Origin: a virus | Taxonomy: Duplodnaviria > Caudoviricetes | Virus record (IMG/VR): IMGVR_UViG_3300027852_000043 | Span: 1-60,972 of that record | Direction: 5' to 3' (one strand) | DNA length: 60,972 bases | Shown here: in pieces, positions 7,561-60,972 of the stretch | How the letters are laid out: each line of letters begins with the position of its first letter | Position numbering within the stretch: position 1 is the first letter of the stretch | Position numbers and translations under genes: made by a program | The notes under the pieces: model-generated | Databases searched by the model: none | Seen by the model: only the letters and a program-made list of their open reading frames with translations | Told to the model about the DNA's origin: nothing

Positions 7561-7597
7561 TTAACCTTTGCCGTCAGGGTCGAGCGGCTGGTTCGCA
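7561..7597 (-). mobile_element. Truncated attC site (left arm only)
   Basis: 30 bp (7564..7593) identical to 8303..8332 of the intact attC. Confidence 0.7.
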
Positions 7598-7827: not shown

Positions 7828-8024
7828 GACATACCCCCTTTTATTCCCCCTTTTTTGCGGTTTTTTGGTATAGCTTGTTCAAGTTTTTTAATGTCTTCTA
7901 TGAGACCAGCAAATGATAATCTTAGCAAGTCATCGTATTCAAGCCCTTGCAGACCAAGAGCTGACTTTGCGACTATCCCAGAGAGCAATGCAATTTCAAT
8001 CTGTTTTCTCGGCTCTATCTTCAT
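7824..8024 (-). CDS. Hypothetical protein
   Basis: AAGGAG RBS. Confidence 0.55.
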   Translation of the reverse strand: MKIEPRKQIEIALLSGIVAKSALGLQGLEYDDLLRLSFAGLIEDIKKLEQAIPKNRKKGGIKGGMS

Positions 8025-8036
8025 CTTTCATCTCCT

Positions 8037-8077
8037 TCGGCCCGGCTTTTTGAGTCCGCTGCACTGGCTGACTATGT
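8037..8077 (-). mobile_element. Degenerate/truncated attC site
   Basis: ACATAGT-CAGCC-AGTGCAGC-GGACTCAAAAAGCCGGGCC; closely resembles 13426..13483. Confidence 0.55.
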
Positions 8078-8260: not shown

Positions 8261-8276
8261 TTTTTATCTCCTTAAA

Positions 8277-8336
8277 AGATAACGTTTAGCTAACCTGCGG
8301 CGACCTTTGCCGTCAGGGTCGAGCGGCTGGTTATAA
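8277..8336 (-). mobile_element. Intact integron-type attC site (60 bp)
   Basis: R'' TTATAAC, spacer CAGCC, L'' GCTCGACC, central stem, L' GGTTAGC, spacer TAAAC, R' GTTATCT. Confidence 0.85.
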
Positions 8337-8462
8337 ATCAACATCTTCCCTTTTGATATAAATAGGGATAATTCCCAATAAAAACCACCCATGATAAATA
8401 TACCTTTTTACTGGTCCGAATGTCCCATGCTTAATTTTCTTCCATGTTTTATAGGTAATCAT
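8331..8462 (-). CDS. 43-aa cassette ORF (not in the ORF track)
   Basis: GAGGT RBS; MITYKTWKKIKHGTFGPVKRYIYHGWFLLGIIPIYIKREDVDL; stop TAA lies inside attC R''. Confidence 0.65.
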   Translation of the reverse strand: MITYKTWKKIKHGTFGPVKRYIYHGWFLLGIIPIYIKREDVDL

Positions 8463-12986: not shown

Positions 12987-13015
12987 TTGACATAAAGAAT
13001 CTAAGATGTTATGGA
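12987..13015 (+). promoter_or_regulatory. Sigma70 rightward promoter
   Basis: TTGACA-17 bp-TATGGA; ATG at 13023. Confidence 0.5.
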
Positions 13016-13022
13016 TGTAACC

Positions 13023-13259
13023 ATGAAAAATATAGTAGAAAATTTGGTTAAAAATTACCTCAAAAAATACGAAATGAAACAGACCGAATTTGCCATGCGG
13101 GTGGGTATATCCAAACAATTGCTCAATTGGCACCTCAAGCACCCGGAAGCCAAATGGAATCCCCAGGTGGCGCTCGGTATAGAGACGGCCACAAACTGCG
13201 AGATCCTGGCTTATGATTTGGTATTTAGGGACCGCAGACACGAAAAGCCGCGCCGGTGA
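13023..13259 (+). CDS. Cro-like HTH regulator
   Basis: MKQTEFAMRVGISKQLLNWHL...ALGIETAT...DL; first gene of the rightward operon. Confidence 0.8.
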   Translation: MKNIVENLVKNYLKKYEMKQTEFAMRVGISKQLLNWHLKHPEAKWNPQVALGIETATNCEILAYDLVFRDRRHEKPRR

Positions 13260-13274
13260 TTAAGGACGTTATAT
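13238..13274 (+). mobile_element. attC right arm only
   Basis: GAAAAGCCGCGCC-GGTGATT-AAGGAC-GTTATAT. Confidence 0.55.
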
Positions 13275-13288
13275 TCCAGGAGGTAAAA

Positions 13289-13483
13289 ATGGGAAAATGC
13301 ACAAATTGCAAAGGAACAGGGAAACAGGTTTTTCATGGGCACTTTGAGTCTGTAATGGGAACCTGTAATTTCTGCAAAGGATCTGGGAAAAGAGAAGATC
13401 AGTTAAAGTGGCTTGACAAGCTGAAATATAATAAGCCAGCGCAGCGGACTCAAGAAGCCGAGCCGGTGATTAAAGTGTCATAA
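13289..13483 (+). CDS. Cassette-borne protein with a DnaJ-type Cys repeat
   Basis: CTNCKGTG...CNFCKGSG; AGGAGG RBS; C-terminus reads through attC. Confidence 0.7.
   Translation: MGKCTNCKGTGKQVFHGHFESVMGTCNFCKGSGKREDQLKWLDKLKYNKPAQRTQEAEPVIKVS
13426..13483 (+). mobile_element. Degenerate full-length attC (58 bp)
   Basis: R'' ATATAAT, L'' AGCGCAGC, GG(A)CTC/GAGCC stem, L' GGTGATT, R' GTCATAA; both cores carry one substitution. Confidence 0.65.
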
Positions 13484-13499
13484 GGAAAGGAGAATTACA

Positions 13500-13727
13500 A
13501 TGAAGCAACCGAGGGAGCCAGGCATATATCAATTTACGTGTACGAAAAAATTCAGCTTTCCGATATCTTTAGACGAATGGGTCGTCGGGGTCGTTTTTAA
13601 AGAGGACGGTAAGTGGCGCTATTACGGCGTTGCAGGTTGCGCAAAATATGCCCATGGGTTTTCGTGGCCGCTGGCACCATTCGTGGGGCATGGGGAATTT
13701 AAGAGGTTAACCAGCAAAACAACATGA
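13500..13727 (+). CDS. Cassette-borne hypothetical protein
   Basis: AAGGAG RBS; lies between two attC-like sites. Confidence 0.65.
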   Translation: MKQPREPGIYQFTCTKKFSFPISLDEWVVGVVFKEDGKWRYYGVAGCAKYAHGFSWPLAPFVGHGEFKRLTSKTT

Positions 13728-13764
13728 CCCAAAAAAGCCGGGCAGGTGAACTATATCGTTATAC
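13705..13764 (+). mobile_element. attC site (60 bp) with an eroded L'' box
   Basis: R'' GGTTAAC, TG(A)CCC/GGGCA stem, AAAAAAGCC loop, L' GGTGAAC, R' GTTATAC. Confidence 0.65.
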
Positions 13765-13776
13765 AGGGGAAATAAA

Positions 13777-14091
13777 TTGAGCATTATATCTGGAGTTAGG
13801 ACCCCAAATGAAATAATCAGGCTAGTCCTCGAAGATTATGAAATTGATCAAAGCATAGCGGATAAAATCGAGGATAGATTAAACAAGGGAATGGTTTCAG
13901 TATCTGACAATAAAGCAACTTTGGTGATCATCGCCAAAAAAAATAAACTTGAATGGGCGTATGTTGATCTTGAGAGTGTTATTAAGCAAACCTCCCCTGG
14001 CGGGGATAAGCTCTGCCTTTGCCCTGGTGGGGTTGGCATTTGCGGCTTTGGTGAGTCTGCTACGGGGATATGTAAACACCTCCTCCGGTGA
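13777..14091 (+). CDS. Hypothetical protein
   Basis: TTG start after AGGGGA; Cys-rich C-terminus. Confidence 0.55.
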   Translation: MSIISGVRTPNEIIRLVLEDYEIDQSIADKIEDRLNKGMVSVSDNKATLVIIAKKNKLEWAYVDLESVIKQTSPGGDKLCLCPGGVGICGFGESATGICKHLLR

Positions 14092-14170
14092 TGGCTGGAC
14101 GCAATCGCATGCAATGGAGCCTGTCGAGCAAACCATTGGTATGGAGGTTAATAAAATAATGGAGGGAAGC

Positions 14171-14425
14171 ATGGAGGTTATAACCGGAAGTCTTGATATT
14201 TCTGGAATAAAACGACTACAAATGCCAGAGACGGTCATATTAATAGAATGTCCTAAATGTGGAGATGTGTTGGATATTCCTCTGATAGATCAAATATATT
14301 ATCCTGCTAAAGGAGGGCATAACGTAGCGTTTTATTGTGAAAATTGTGATATTGAGGTCGCTCGAAAAATTGAGATTGTTTCGATAATCGTAACCCTGCA
14401 TATACATGACCCAACAATTGTATAA
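14171..14425 (+). CDS. Zinc-ribbon protein
   Basis: ECPKCG...YCENC. Confidence 0.6.
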   Translation: MEVITGSLDISGIKRLQMPETVILIECPKCGDVLDIPLIDQIYYPAKGGHNVAFYCENCDIEVARKIEIVSIIVTLHIHDPTIV

Positions 14426-14469
14426 TCAGTCATTATATTTTTTTCTTGGGGGGGGGGAGGTATGGACAG

Positions 14470-14679
14470 ATGATGGAAATGGAACAATTAAAAAAACGAA
14501 TCAATGACAGTGGGATAGAGGGAGTATTAACAGCGCACATCCTGGACGATTACTCACCGGCAGGACAAATGATGATGCATCAATTAGGCGAATCAGGCGA
14601 GTACGTCCAGCGTAAAACTCCGGCGCACAGTTTTGATGCAAAATGGAGGATATTCCAGAAAGGCGCTGAACCATATTAG
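14470..14679 (+). CDS. Hypothetical protein
   Basis: GGAGG RBS. Confidence 0.55.
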   Translation: MMEMEQLKKRINDSGIEGVLTAHILDDYSPAGQMMMHQLGESGEYVQRKTPAHSFDAKWRIFQKGAEPY

Positions 14680-14693
14680 CGGTATAGATAGTC

Positions 14694-15011
14694 GTGATGT
14701 TTGACGAAATCATAAAATCAAGAGTTGAGAAAATACAGAGGATATTAGGATTAAAAGCTTCTGAATACGCTTCCAAAACAGACCGCTTCCACAATTTTAA
14801 TGTTGCCGGTCGAATATCCGGGACAACACCCGAAAAAGCCCTATACGGGATGATGCTGAAACATGAGGTGTCAGTATTAGATTTGATTGAGATGGCAGAC
14901 ATTGAGCCTGAGAACCTATCTGCATCGTTGATTGATGAAAAGATAGGGGATTATATCAACTATTTAATATTGTTAGAGGGGATGCTTAAACAAAGATGTA
15001 ACCAAAAGTAG
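14694..15011 (+). CDS. All-helical nucleotide-modification-associated (DUF1599-like) protein
   Basis: K..EYA...DRFHNF...KH...EKIGD.INYLILL. Confidence 0.6.
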   Translation: MMFDEIIKSRVEKIQRILGLKASEYASKTDRFHNFNVAGRISGTTPEKALYGMMLKHEVSVLDLIEMADIEPENLSASLIDEKIGDYINYLILLEGMLKQRCNQK

Positions 15012-15017
15012 GAATAA

Positions 15018-15041
15018 CCCTTGACTTGCAAGCCGGGTTGT
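15018..15041 (+). repeat. 24-bp direct repeat containing a -35 box (second copy 15784..15807)
   Basis: CCCTTGACTTGCAAGCCGGGTTGT flanks the C5-MTase gene on both sides. Confidence 0.85.
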
Positions 15042-15053
15042 AGCTGAGGGTAT

Positions 15054-15809
15054 ATGAAACATTTAGATTTGTTTTCGGGGATCGGCGGTTTTGCTCTCGC
15101 GGCATCCTGGGTATGGGGCGTAGAACATGAAGTTGTGTCCTTCTGTGAGGTAGAACCGTTTGCCCAAAAAGTACTCAAAAAACATTGGCCGGAGGTTCCA
15201 GTCCATGATGATATTTCAACGTTTAATTGTGATAACCTGCAAAATATTGGCTTACTCACGGGTGGGTTTCCTTGCCAAGATATTTCCCTAAGCGGAAAAG
15301 GGGAAGGTTTGAATGGGAAAAGGTCAGGGTTATGGTTTGAAATGTTCAGGATTATCCGCACTATACGACCCCGTTTCGTTATCATTGAAAACAGTTCAGC
15401 GCTCCTTGTTCGAGGAGGGGGAAGAGTTATTGCAGATCTTGCCAGCATCAGGTTCGATGCACAATGGCAAGTTGTTACCGCAAAAGAAGTGGGCGCTCCG
15501 CATCTCCGTAAACGACTCTGTATTGTTGCCTACCCCAACAAAATCTATGGGGAAGCGGGGTTGGGGAATCTCTTTGAGCGGGCGGCGAAGGTATGCAGAA
15601 AAAGTGCAGAACGCCGCGCTCAGTTTTGGGTACAAACCCCCTGTCCGAATAATCGAATGGATGATGGGGTACCCGGAAAATTATACGAATTGGCAGTAGG
15701 GGCATATGGGAACGCAATAACCCCTCAAGCTTTTACACCCATCATGCAAGCGATTAAGGACTTGGAGGGACAACATCGCTTTTCCCTTGACTTGCAAGCC
15801 GGGTTGTGA
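15054..15809 (+). CDS. DNA cytosine-5 methyltransferase (alpha-type chain)
   Basis: Motif I DLFSGIGG, IV GGFPCQ, VI EN, VIII H.R.R, X GNA. Confidence 0.93.
   Translation: MKHLDLFSGIGGFALAASWVWGVEHEVVSFCEVEPFAQKVLKKHWPEVPVHDDISTFNCDNLQNIGLLTGGFPCQDISLSGKGEGLNGKRSGLWFEMFRIIRTIRPRFVIIENSSALLVRGGGRVIADLASIRFDAQWQVVTAKEVGAPHLRKRLCIVAYPNKIYGEAGLGNLFERAAKVCRKSAERRAQFWVQTPCPNNRMDDGVPGKLYELAVGAYGNAITPQAFTPIMQAIKDLEGQHRFSLDLQAGL
15313..15699 (+). CDS. Nested alternative-frame C5-MTase subunit carrying motif IX (start uncertain)
   Basis: LLPTPT...P...IEWMMGYP..YT, entirely inside the MTase gene in another frame. Confidence 0.65.
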   Translation: MGKGQGYGLKCSGLSALYDPVSLSLKTVQRSLFEEGEELLQILPASGSMHNGKLLPQKKWALRISVNDSVLLPTPTKSMGKRGWGISLSGRRRYAEKVQNAALSFGYKPPVRIIEWMMGYPENYTNWQ

Positions 15810-15950: not shown

Positions 15951-16697
15951 ATGGGTGCTACAGGATACATTAAAGCCTGGAGAAAAGTCTTAGAATCTTC
16001 CACATACCATGCGCTTACTGCTTCTCAGCGAGACGTTTTTTGGGCGTGCCTGTTATTGGCAAACCGTAGTCCTACCGACTGGGAGTGGGAGGGCCAAGTT
16101 TTCAATTGCAATCCGGGTCAATTCATTACCTCATTGGATTCGCTTAAAAAAATATGTGCGAAAGATACGTCAACGCAAAATATCAGGACAGCACTAAAAA
16201 AATTAGAAAAGTGGCAATTTCTAACAAACGAATCAACAAAGACAGGAAGATTAATAACCATAGTCAATTGGGGTAGTTACCAGTACCTTGAAGAAGAGAC
16301 CAACAAAGCAAATGACAAAGAGCTAACAAAGAGCCAACAAAGAGCTAACAAAGAGCTAACACCTAACAAGAAGATTAAGAAGATTAAGAAGATTAAGAAG
16401 GCAGAAAAGAACCCCCGCGCGCGAGAGAACGTTTGGGTCAAGTTATCACCTCCAACCCTTGAAGAGGTCAAAGCCTATTTCAAAGAAAAGGGTTACTCTG
16501 AAGAAGTCGCCGAAAAAGCATTTGAATATTACGATGAAGGTGACTGGATAGATGGGCAAGGTAACAAGGTTTATCGTTGGAAGCAAAAGATGATCGCTGT
16601 CTGGTTTAAAGAAGAAAATAAAGCTACGGAAGAAACCCCAAAGTTCAAGTTTTTCCTCCAGGATGATGAGAAAGACGCAAACGGTAATTGGATTTAA
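15951..16697 (+). CDS. Phage replication initiator (wHTH, O-like)
   Basis: GYIKAWRK, LLLAN, PGQFITS..SL, IRTALKKLE, ITIVNW..YQ; C-terminal PPTLEEVKAY...YY..GDW. Confidence 0.85.
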   Translation: MGATGYIKAWRKVLESSTYHALTASQRDVFWACLLLANRSPTDWEWEGQVFNCNPGQFITSLDSLKKICAKDTSTQNIRTALKKLEKWQFLTNESTKTGRLITIVNWGSYQYLEEETNKANDKELTKSQQRANKELTPNKKIKKIKKIKKAEKNPRARENVWVKLSPPTLEEVKAYFKEKGYSEEVAEKAFEYYDEGDWIDGQGNKVYRWKQKMIAVWFKEENKATEETPKFKFFLQDDEKDANGNWI

Positions 16698-59207: not shown

Positions 59208-59259
59208 CCATAACACTCATTGCCACTGTTCATTAGGCAATGAAATCAACTGGTTAGCG
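59208..59259 (-). mobile_element. Degenerate attC directly abutting the upstream attC
   Basis: R'' CGCTAAC-CAGTT; 8-bp stem TCATTGCC/GGCAATGA; right arm irregular. Confidence 0.4.
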
Positions 59260-59319
59260 GTATAACGTTAAGCTGACTTACCACGGCTTCTTGTGGGTAA
59301 GTCCAGCGGCTGGTTAGGA
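59260..59319 (-). mobile_element. Intact attC site (60 bp)
   Basis: R'' TCCTAAC, CAGCC, L'' GCTGGACT, TACC(C)AC/GTGGTA, L' AGTCAGC, TTAAC, R' GTTATAC. Confidence 0.85.
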
Positions 59320-59459
59320 GTAATACCGTGTGTTACGTGTGCCGCGGGCCAATGTCCGCAGTCTTCACATACTCGTTTACCCTTCAACGCTGGTTTACGT
59401 TTTCCATCTTGAATTATTGGTTTAAAAATAATTTTTCCCCCGCACTTTTCACATTTCAT
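59268..59459 (-). CDS. Cassette-borne zinc-ribbon protein
   Basis: CEKCG...CEDCG; reads into attC (PNQPLDL). Confidence 0.6.
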   Translation of the reverse strand: MKCEKCGGKIIFKPIIQDGKRKPALKGKRVCEDCGHWPAAHVTHGITPNQPLDLPTRSRGKSA

Positions 59460-59469
59460 TACTTTAATC

Positions 59470-59525
59470 TCTTAACGCTAAGATCAGCCGCCGGGTCTTC
59501 GGTCGGCTGCATTTGTTGGTTATAA
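59470..59525 (-). mobile_element. Intact attC site (56 bp)
   Basis: R'' TTATAAC, CAACA, L'' AATGCAGC, CG(A)CC/GGCG, L' GCTGATC, TTAGC, R' GTTAAGA. Confidence 0.85.
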
Positions 59526-59726
59526 GATTTCTAATATCACCGCATCACCAACATACGAATGACCGGTATCCCGGTAAAACCACCATTTGTCAAAACCCTC
59601 AACCGCAACAGATACATCGTCCGCGTCTATGATTTCATATTCGTAGAATCCAGATGGCAACATCACATTGCCAGATTTGTTGTGGACCTTGACCCTGTCA
59701 CCTTTTTTTAAAGTTCCGAGTTCCAT
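59520..59726 (-). CDS. Cassette-borne small beta-barrel-like protein
   Basis: AAGGAG RBS right after R'; LKKGDRVKV; stop TAA inside R''. Confidence 0.7.
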   Translation of the reverse strand: MELGTLKKGDRVKVHNKSGNVMLPSGFYEYEIIDADDVSVAVEGFDKWWFYRDTGHSYVGDAVILEIL

Positions 59727-59739
59727 TTAGAATTGCTCC

Positions 59740-59797
59740 TTATAACAGGTTGATCACCAGTGCGGCCCTTGGCATCTGGTGGATTAACTGGTTGTGC
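59740..59797 (-). mobile_element. Intact attC site (58 bp)
   Basis: R'' GCACAAC, CAGTT, L'' AATCCACC, AG(A)TGC/GCACT, L' GGTGATC, AACCT, R' GTTATAA. Confidence 0.85.
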
Positions 59798-60017
59798 GCC
59801 TCTGAGCCATTAGTTCGAAAATCATTTTTTTGATATCATCCATGCAATCGGTGTTAAATACGCAATTGGCGGAAGGGAAAAAACAGTATTGTCGCCATGC
59901 CCCATACCATTTAATTGTACCTAAAATAAATCCCGATGACTTAGAAAGAATGTCCCAAATATCTGTTTTCCCCGTACTCCCTATTTTACTGAATTCCATA
60001 TATTTGCTTCCAACCAT
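59784..60017 (-). CDS. Conserved phage protein ending in attC
   Basis: KT..W.I......LG.IKWYGAWRQYCFFP....VFN..CM.DI. Confidence 0.75.
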   Translation of the reverse strand: MVGSKYMEFSKIGSTGKTDIWDILSKSSGFILGTIKWYGAWRQYCFFPSANCVFNTDCMDDIKKMIFELMAQRRTTS

Positions 60018-60944: not shown

Positions 60945-60972
60945 TGTTAATTTTTCTCTGGAAAACGGGACC
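60945..60972. repeat. Terminal overlap, copy 2
   Basis: 27/28 identical to 1..28. Confidence 0.9.

Follow-up and report, generated by a model that had tools for sequence, protein, structure and literature searches.

The viral genome IMGVR_UViG_3300027852_000043 (Duplodnaviria; Caudoviricetes) was analyzed as one window of 60,972 nt, which is the entire record and a whole virus genome (CheckV completeness, 100%); the genome is contained in a single marine metagenome DNA run, here called run X1, from which it may derive. Under study are three short repeats at 13.24 to 13.76 kb, in the rightward early operon, which a reading of the bare sequence (hereafter the original prediction) had taken for integron attC sites. 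A candidate promoter for this operon lies at 12987-13015 (plus strand); it was recognized by eye (TTGACA, 17 nt, TATGGA, with a TG upstream) and is absent from the promoter scan listing because its second hexamer ends in A. Divergent from it is a leftward promoter of the form TTGACT-17-TATAAT (12929-12901, minus strand), which scored 11/12 in the scan. The first gene of the operon is a cro-like open reading frame (ORF) of 78 amino acids (13023-13259, plus strand), whose last codons enter the first repeat and whose only Pfam matches, to HTH_26 and YdaS (E about 0.004 to 0.008), were below cut-off. Its ATG (13023) lies 7 nt past the -10-like hexamer, and the first early message may therefore be leaderless. 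The two small genes that follow (ORFs A and B) each have their own ribosome-binding site, and no terminator-like site was found on the plus strand from 12,988 to 15,000. That the early promoter stands in for the cassette promoter (Pc) of an integron, as had been proposed, is consistent with these data, and read-through from it is plausible on the evidence of the sequence.

Repeats and mini-cassettes of the early operon

The boundaries of the three repeats (c1, c2, and c3), their shared plus-strand orientation, and the two small ORFs between them are as the original prediction described them. The repeats share a 31-nt unit in three direct copies (13243-13273, 13453-13483, and 13733-13763) spaced 210 and 280 nt apart. 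A 15-nt core, AAGCCGNGCCGGTGA, has 0, 0, and 1 mismatch at c1, c2, and c3, respectively, and all of its other matches in the genome have 3 mismatches. Because c1 and c2 are read in different frames, the repeat is conserved at the nucleotide level. A small ORF ends within or ahead of each copy, and the next start codon lies 44 to 47 nt downstream. The genome has a fourth copy on the minus strand at about 8.05 kb, which aligns with 13424-13465 over 42 nt (86% identity).

In terms of attC architecture, the three repeats are unequally complete. The first, c1 (13235-13274, plus strand), corresponds to an attC right arm, of which the loop GAAAAGCC, 3' stem, spacer, and R' box (GTTATAT, 13268-13274) remain. 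It is without an R'' box and left arm, and two A.C mismatches fall in its 5' stem, where the cro-like ORF ends. The second, c2 (13426-13483, plus strand), is a full-length site of 58 nt that runs from R'' ATATAAT to R' GTCATAA. The third, c3 (13705-13764, plus strand), spans 60 nt from GGTTAAC to GTTATAC. Pairing has been lost in its lower stems, but both triplets (AAC and GTT) and the upper part of the hairpin, with stem CCC/GGG, bulged A, and loop AAAAAAGCC, survive. Further downstream, GTATAAT-CAGTC at 14420-14431 (plus strand), at the stop codon of an ORF at 14150-14425, is a possible left stub of another site; it gave no model match and is too short for significance alone.

Read as sites with a G|TT crossover point, the repeats bound two mini-cassettes, successive sites being separated by one ORF on the same strand. 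Mini-cassette A (13269-13477, plus strand) measures 209 nt from G|TT to G|TT and contains ORF A (13289-13483), which encodes 64 amino acids with two CxxCxGxG motifs and matches Pfam DnaJ_CXXCXGXG with an E value of 7.8e-4, below cut-off. Mini-cassette B (13478-13758, plus strand; 281 nt) contains ORF B (13500-13727; 75 amino acids), for which no Pfam family match was found. The viral contig L092, which was also recovered as L150, carries ORF B with 83% nucleotide identity (phage positions 13486-13715), placed between two sites detected by the covariance model described below, the upstream one with an 85-nt insert in its loop. The neighbours of gene B differ on both sides, and L092 shares nothing else with the phage genome at E <= 1e-5.

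Other contigs in run X1 match only short stretches of this region (13294-13395, 13605-13715, and 14582-14654), with 85 to 95% likeness, and then continue into unlike sequence; one such match, to ORF A, is covered several times more deeply than the phage. From these short partial matches it follows that related small genes circulate in other genomes of the sample. Two joints in run X1 (12879>13237 and 13265>15778) were not counted as evidence, as their sides span only 29 nt at 85% likeness.

The repeat family outside the phage genome

The repeat was at first taken for a regulatory hairpin of the phage, with six base pairs, a bulged A, and a purine-rich loop; this reading was abandoned after a search for related sequences. 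In the run X1 contig with a loose end at 13715, a further copy of the repeat has both inner stem pairs changed compensatorily, and the search pattern GCAGCGGACNNAARAAGCCNNGCCG, the core motif from c2 and the 8-kb copy c4, was therefore made to allow such change. It covers the fixed middle of the unit, the lower stem and the R boxes lying outside the pattern. Matches were obtained in 3 viral, 16 genome, and 57 metagenome contigs; 9 of the 16 genome contigs carry titles of Desulfobacterales, Desulfobacteraceae, Desulfosarcinaceae, Desulfovermiculus, Thermodesulfobacteriota, or Deltaproteobacteria metagenome-assembled genomes (MAGs). Matches in L101, L115, and L128, without flanking boxes, were set aside as apparent chance matches, and three viral matches to a longer motif, AAGCCGNGCCGGTGATTAA, were likewise judged to be due to chance (coding context, no flanking boxes).

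Of 64 distinct copies, 63, all from outside this genome, were aligned; the copy in L150, which belongs to a relative of the phage, was left out. The family unit is 58 to 60 nt long and consists of the end boxes, a 3-nt unpaired spacer on each side, a 6-bp lower stem, a bulged G, and a 6-bp stem, topped by a bulged A, a 3-bp stem, and the 8-nt loop AAAAAGCC, which is replaced by 38 or 85 nt in some copies. The left box ends in AAC in 61 of the 63 copies, and the right box begins with GTT in 57. Pairing in the stem reaches 94%, 8 of the 15 pairs vary on both sides, and none of 500 shuffles attained its covariation score. As described in PMC5371416, attC sites conserve only three bases (AAC/GTT), form imperfect hairpins with extrahelical bases, an unpaired central spacer, and a variable terminal structure, and are 57 to 141 nt long; c2 (58 nt), c3 (60 nt), and the copies of the family fall within this range of lengths.

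A covariance model, R2, was built from the 63 copies. Applied to 71 loci (among which L112/L164 and L108/L167 are duplicate pairs), it found 24 that hold at least 2 sites, and in 24 of 24 all sites lay on one strand. No Rfam family matched the phage genome at gathering thresholds, and none matched at E <= 1 in six loci with canonical copies. In four unrelated contigs (L106, L134, L136, and L161) the R' box is directly followed by the same GC-rich perfect hairpin and then TCGCGGTGCTGAC; this could be another conserved element or mark a conserved end of the arrays.

Integron integrases accompany the family. Matches to TIGR02249 (integron integrase) above the curated cut-off were present in 5 of 15 motif-bearing MAGs versus 0 of 14 control genomes. 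The DNA around nine TIGR02249-positive genes was examined for R2 sites: L184 has eight, on the strand opposite intI and with the first about 0.8 kb away; L185, L186, and L187 have sites upstream of intI, also on the opposite strand; L183 has one weak site near the gene; and around the genes in L171, L188, L189, and L190 no R2 site was found at E <= 1. The arrays also carry the mark of recombination. In 33 consecutive pairs of sites from 21 arrays (L164, L108, L150, and the distant third sites of L152 and L103 were left out), the R'' box of a site was complementary to the R' box of the preceding site at all four variable bases in 21 pairs, versus 1 of 33 for R'' and the R' box of its own site; random pairing gave 3.6%. 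Such complementarity between R''(n) and R'(n-1) is the product of G|TT crossover between cassettes, and the family is therefore attC.

These observations bear directly on whether the repeat might be a phage regulatory motif (a promoter, an operator, or a nut-like element) that resembles attC by chance. Its fixed position 44 to 47 nt before three successive start codons, its purine-rich loop, and its place just behind a cro-like gene would suit such a role. That the same family forms co-oriented arrays beside integron integrases and bears the crossover signature argues strongly the other way, and we regard a purely regulatory origin as very improbable. Its specific forms fared no better. A sigma-70 promoter was ruled out, there being no sigma-70-like hexamer pair at the sites. 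A hairpin promoter for a virion RNA polymerase was ruled out because the giant virion proteins, of 1002 and 1440 amino acids, are polyvalent proteins carrying RadC-like JAB and LPD38 domains and not an RNA polymerase. A nut/boxB-like or RNase III site, suggested by the purine-rich loop and intercistronic position, was dropped once the family had been found in integron arrays. The giant polyvalent protein itself (49023-56910) is apparently split into these two ORFs, the splitting element being a homing-endonuclease-like ORF at 52025-52588.

Sites and other repeats across the phage genome

PHROGs annotation divides the phage genome into three gene blocks: a leftward block of small genes, including those for an Erf-like annealing protein, a RecE-like exonuclease, NinB, and HNH endonucleases; the rightward early block from about 13.0 kb, with two DNA methyltransferases, a DnaD-like loader, and a resolvase; and, after it, a long structural block. 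A covariance-model scan, which had been proposed as a check of the attC reading, was run with R2, to which this genome contributed no copy, and with filters off. It found seven sites at E <= 0.1 in three clusters. In the cluster under study, c2 scored 28.1 bits (E = 5.8e-6; match span 13422-13488, plus strand) and c3 scored 15.9 bits (E = 0.058; 13710-13769, plus strand); the latter reached 16.6 bits against R1, a model seeded from copies in the window and in viral contigs. In 850,912 nt of control sequence from 86 unrelated viral loci, the best R2 score was 14.9 bits.

The other two clusters lie on the minus strand. Near 59 kb, c5 (59465-59529) is the best-preserved site of the genome (39.1 bits, E = 1.4e-9; 56 nt by hand count) and is accompanied by c8 (59735-59801; 29.9 bits, E = 1.5e-6) and c7 (59255-59323; 25.3 bits, E = 4.7e-5), the lower stem of c7 having an entirely different sequence with its pairing retained. 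The cassettes of this cluster measure 270 and 210 nt. Near 8 kb, c4 (8021-8077; 23.1 bits, E = 2.6e-4) is without a 3' spacer and R' box and is followed by a ribosome-binding site directly after the stem, and c9 (8272-8340) scored 15.8 bits (E = 0.061). A left half-site at 7564-7593 (minus strand) is identical in 30 of 30 nt to the left half of c9 (8303-8332). The AAC and GTT triplets are both present in c5, c7, c8, and c9, and these four sites do not match the search pattern that seeded the family. One further candidate, c6 (8997-8930), was not counted as a site; it scored 12.7 bits against R2 and lies within conserved coding sequence. With the 20-bit floor of PMC9892861 applied to R2, which is a different model, the 59-kb cluster (39.1, 29.9, and 25.3 bits) qualifies as a cluster of attC sites lacking an integrase, for which at least two neighbouring sites are needed, and in the 13-kb cluster only one site, c2, lies above the floor.

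Two further repeats touch these clusters. The 30-nt repeat 7564-7593/8303-8332 (minus strand) encodes a C-terminal peptide, NQPLDPDGKG, common to two ORFs; because c7 encodes an NQPLD tail like that of the c9 repeat, cassette ORFs here often end inside a site. A 75-nt direct repeat (59101-59175/59975-60049; 57 nt exact, 91% overall) brackets the whole 59-kb cluster and contains a ribosome-binding site together with the opening codons of an ORF, its downstream copy heading a short ORF only.

The claim that the orientation of the sites flips with the direction of the genes was upheld, all seven R2 matches at E <= 0.1 being co-oriented with the local genes; because the seven represent only three independent clusters, agreement throughout has a chance probability of about 1 in 8. 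The crossover signature was also sought at the five junctions within the phage, mostly by hand, and three reach 4 of 4 variable bases, one 3 of 4, and one 1 of 4. Those with full complementarity are c2 R'' (ATATAAT) with c1 R' (GTTATAT), the 14420 stub (GTATAAT) with c3 R' (GTTATAC), and c5 R'' (TTATAAC) with c8 R'; c7 R'' matches c5 R' at 3 of 4 bases and its own R' at 1 of 4. Of three boundary matches that had been predicted, two (c2 with c1, and the stub with c3) hold at all four variable bases.

In single-stranded DNA folding, the sites differ in how much of the attC hairpin they keep. The bottom strands of c5, c8, c9, and a canonical family copy form hairpins closed by the AAC/GTT boxes. 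For c5, folding energies are -11.5 and -11.4 kcal/mol (z = -4.1 and -3.6 relative to shuffles); the bottom strand of c8 forms a full hairpin, and that of c9 has an energy of -11.1 kcal/mol (z = -1.9). The expectation that the three sites at 13 kb would form attC-like bottom-strand hairpins was not supported: none of them folds better than shuffles on either strand, and the same holds for the 8-kb copy. The best of the three, c2, folds at -8.1 kcal/mol (z = -1.55) on the top strand and at -4.9 kcal/mol (z = -0.20) on the bottom strand. These three sites are probably eroded relics that recombine poorly or no longer.

Several results weigh against assigning the 13-kb repeats to attC. Beyond the folding of c1 to c3 (z from -1.55 to +1.63), c1 gave only a local match to R2 (13235-13255, plus strand; 10.5 bits), and c2 has AAT and GTC instead of AAC and GTT, so that both conserved triplets are altered. 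The R'' box of c2 matches its own R' at 3 of 4 bases, that of c3 matches c2 R' at only 1 of 4, and chance complementarity is raised because the R boxes of the phage are A+T-rich. The control search used default filters and the genome search had filters off, and at about 16 bits c3 and c9 are borderline by score alone given the control maximum of 14.9 bits. The model scores of c2 and c4 are not independent, because the search pattern was derived from these copies. The phage cassettes are shorter than all 33 site-to-site distances in other arrays (minimum, 535 nt). In addition, the half-sites c1, c4, and 7564-7593 have their breakpoints within the hairpin and not at G|TT, and the events that produced them were therefore not integrase crossovers.

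With these points set against the integrase-adjacent arrays and the G|TT signature, the attC reading stands for the family and its origin and falls short for the folding of the 13-kb sites and for the conserved triplets of c2. We think it likely that all three repeats belong, as diverged copies, to a genuine integron attC family. The stretch from 13.24 to 13.76 kb would then be a small and eroding CALIN (cluster of attC sites lacking an integron integrase) that bounds two mini-cassettes. It is read as a CALIN because the phage encodes no tyrosine recombinase: no match to a tyrosine recombinase, IntI, or Phage_integrase was found anywhere in the CheckV-complete genome. Beside the phage attC sites no attI or Pc promoter is recognizable either, so that the combination of intI, attI, and Pc by which a complete integron is defined is absent.

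Elsewhere in the genome, relatives and other repeats were recorded as follows. A blastn search of a phage collection returned no match, and protein-anchored scans of viral contigs found distant or single-gene relatives only. The genome ends (1-28 and 60945-60972) repeat each other in 27 of 28 nt, which is compatible with a circular or terminally redundant genome. Exact 24-nt direct repeats (15018-15041 and 15784-15807) flank a C-5 cytosine methyltransferase gene (15054-15809), which suggests that this gene was inserted or duplicated as a 766-nt unit; these repeats are not attC-like (10.3 bits against R2, on the other strand). Directly 5' of the gene for the DnaD-like loader, a 25-nt inverted repeat (15853-15877/15917-15941; arms 96% complementary and separated by 39 nt) is a candidate origin or operator, and inside that gene five tandem 11-nt units resembling ACAAAGAGCTA (16315-16369) are possibly iteron-like.

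Proposed movement of the cassettes and comparison with known systems

The mechanism that we propose starts from a phage replicating in a host with a chromosomal integron. The host integrase would recombine folded, single-stranded attC sites, and circular cassettes would be inserted at G|TT beside a site already present in the phage. Having no promoter of their own, the cassettes would be transcribed as part of the early message, with each gene translated from its own ribosome-binding site. The recombination sites would then have drifted, c1 losing its left arm, c2 its AAC and GTT, and c3 its lower stem. We infer that the acting integrase is the integron integrase of the host and that this host belongs to the marine Desulfobacterota, the clue to the latter being that the attC type is found mostly in Desulfobacterota MAGs. 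The two cassette genes at 13 kb are probably now fixed in place, and the better-preserved cluster at 59.2 to 59.8 kb may, judging from its sites, still be recombination-competent.

An origin in attC does not by itself settle how the cassettes moved once in the phage. The repeats, 30 to 60 nt long, could be attC by descent and have served as linker homologies for homologous or illegitimate recombination, no integron integrase being needed. Proteins that could do this are encoded by the phage itself, namely an Erf-like annealing protein, a RecE-like exonuclease, and a NinB/Orf mediator; exact direct repeats of 20 to 57 nt that are not attC enclose other gene blocks; the half-sites break within the hairpin; and the L092 copy upstream of gene B has its 85-nt insert in the loop. 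Against this, three of the five phage junctions keep the complementarity between R''(n) and R'(n-1) that only G|TT crossover produces, although those crossovers could predate entry into the phage and leave later events to homologous recombination. We treat this alternative as possible but doubtful.

The persistence of hairpin cores after loss of the boxes invites a second explanation, namely that the retained cores act in the early RNA, in intercistronic stability, processing, weak termination, or the tuning of translation. All of c1 to c4, including those whose R boxes are missing, retain the upper stem, bulged A, and AARAAGCC loop; all copies are co-oriented with transcription; each site lies 28 to 47 nt 5' of the next start codon; and attC sites are thought to contain weak terminators (PMC9892861). 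No Rfam family matches the sites, however, the same loop is conserved in integron arrays, so that plain ancestry can explain it, and co-orientation with the cassette ORF is intrinsic to cassettes. A role at the RNA level as the reason for their retention seems unlikely.

Returning to integrase-mediated exchange, we tentatively suggest a wider picture, which may well prove too broad. Phages of integron-bearing marine bacteria would keep pools of mini-cassettes in their early operons and trade them with the host integron and with unrelated phages by means of the host integrase; only insertions aligned with a promoter would survive, the phage promoters acting as Pc. The present genome would then be a snapshot with one fairly fresh cluster (59 kb) and two decaying ones (8 and 13 kb). 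The cassette genes are tiny and of unknown function. The findings support the role of phages as carriers of integron cassettes between bacteria, and the series from well-kept to eroded sites offers natural material on which features an integrase needs.

Among known systems, the promoter/stem-loop (PeSL) cassettes of T4-type phages are similar in that hairpin-bearing short repeats flank small early ORFs in plastic regions and are tied to the gain and loss of ORFs (PMC2839356, PMC4122927). PeSLs are described there as promoter-terminator motifs shuffled within T4-type phages, whereas the sites here belong to a bacterial integron family with the G|TT signature. Integrase-mediated cassette insertion outside att sites, as reported in bioRxiv 10.1101/2022.09.11.507474, is a possible route of entry into a genome without attI; unlike in that process, no secondary-site junction was identified here, where the first site, c1, is genuinely the right arm of an attC. 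With the sedentary chromosomal integrons of L184 to L187 the phage shares the attC family, co-oriented single-ORF cassettes, and complementarity between R''(n) and R'(n-1). In contrast to them, it has no IntI, recognizable attI, or Pc, so that expression would need the promoters of phage operons; its arrays comprise 2 to 3 sites versus 8 or more in chromosomal integrons, and its sites are more degenerate.

The closest likeness is to the CALINs already published from phages, which make this a known kind of element (PMC9892861). In that survey, Qi, Rajabal, Ghaly, Tetu, and Gillings (2023) reported three complete integrons, one In0, and 17 CALINs from 10,705 phage genomes, with some of the CALINs in virulent marine phages and with 5 of 6 tested phage attC sites recombining with IntI1. 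As described there, those CALINs likewise have co-oriented attC sites that bound small cassettes, no phage integrase, and ORFs mostly of unknown function. The present case differs in its source, an uncultivated marine virus of 61 kb whose three clusters are divided between the rightward block (one) and the leftward block (two); in having cassettes of only 209 to 281 nt and several sites that are halved or have lost AAC/GTT; and in an attC type found mostly in Desulfobacterota MAGs, with one cassette common to an unrelated viral contig. With 17 in 10,705 genomes, attC clusters in phages are rare in that survey, and an uncultivated marine example is added here. It contributes three clusters in one integrase-less genome, very small cassettes, sites in graded states of preservation and erosion, a crossover signature within a phage genome, the Desulfobacterota-linked attC type, and a cassette common to unrelated viral contigs.

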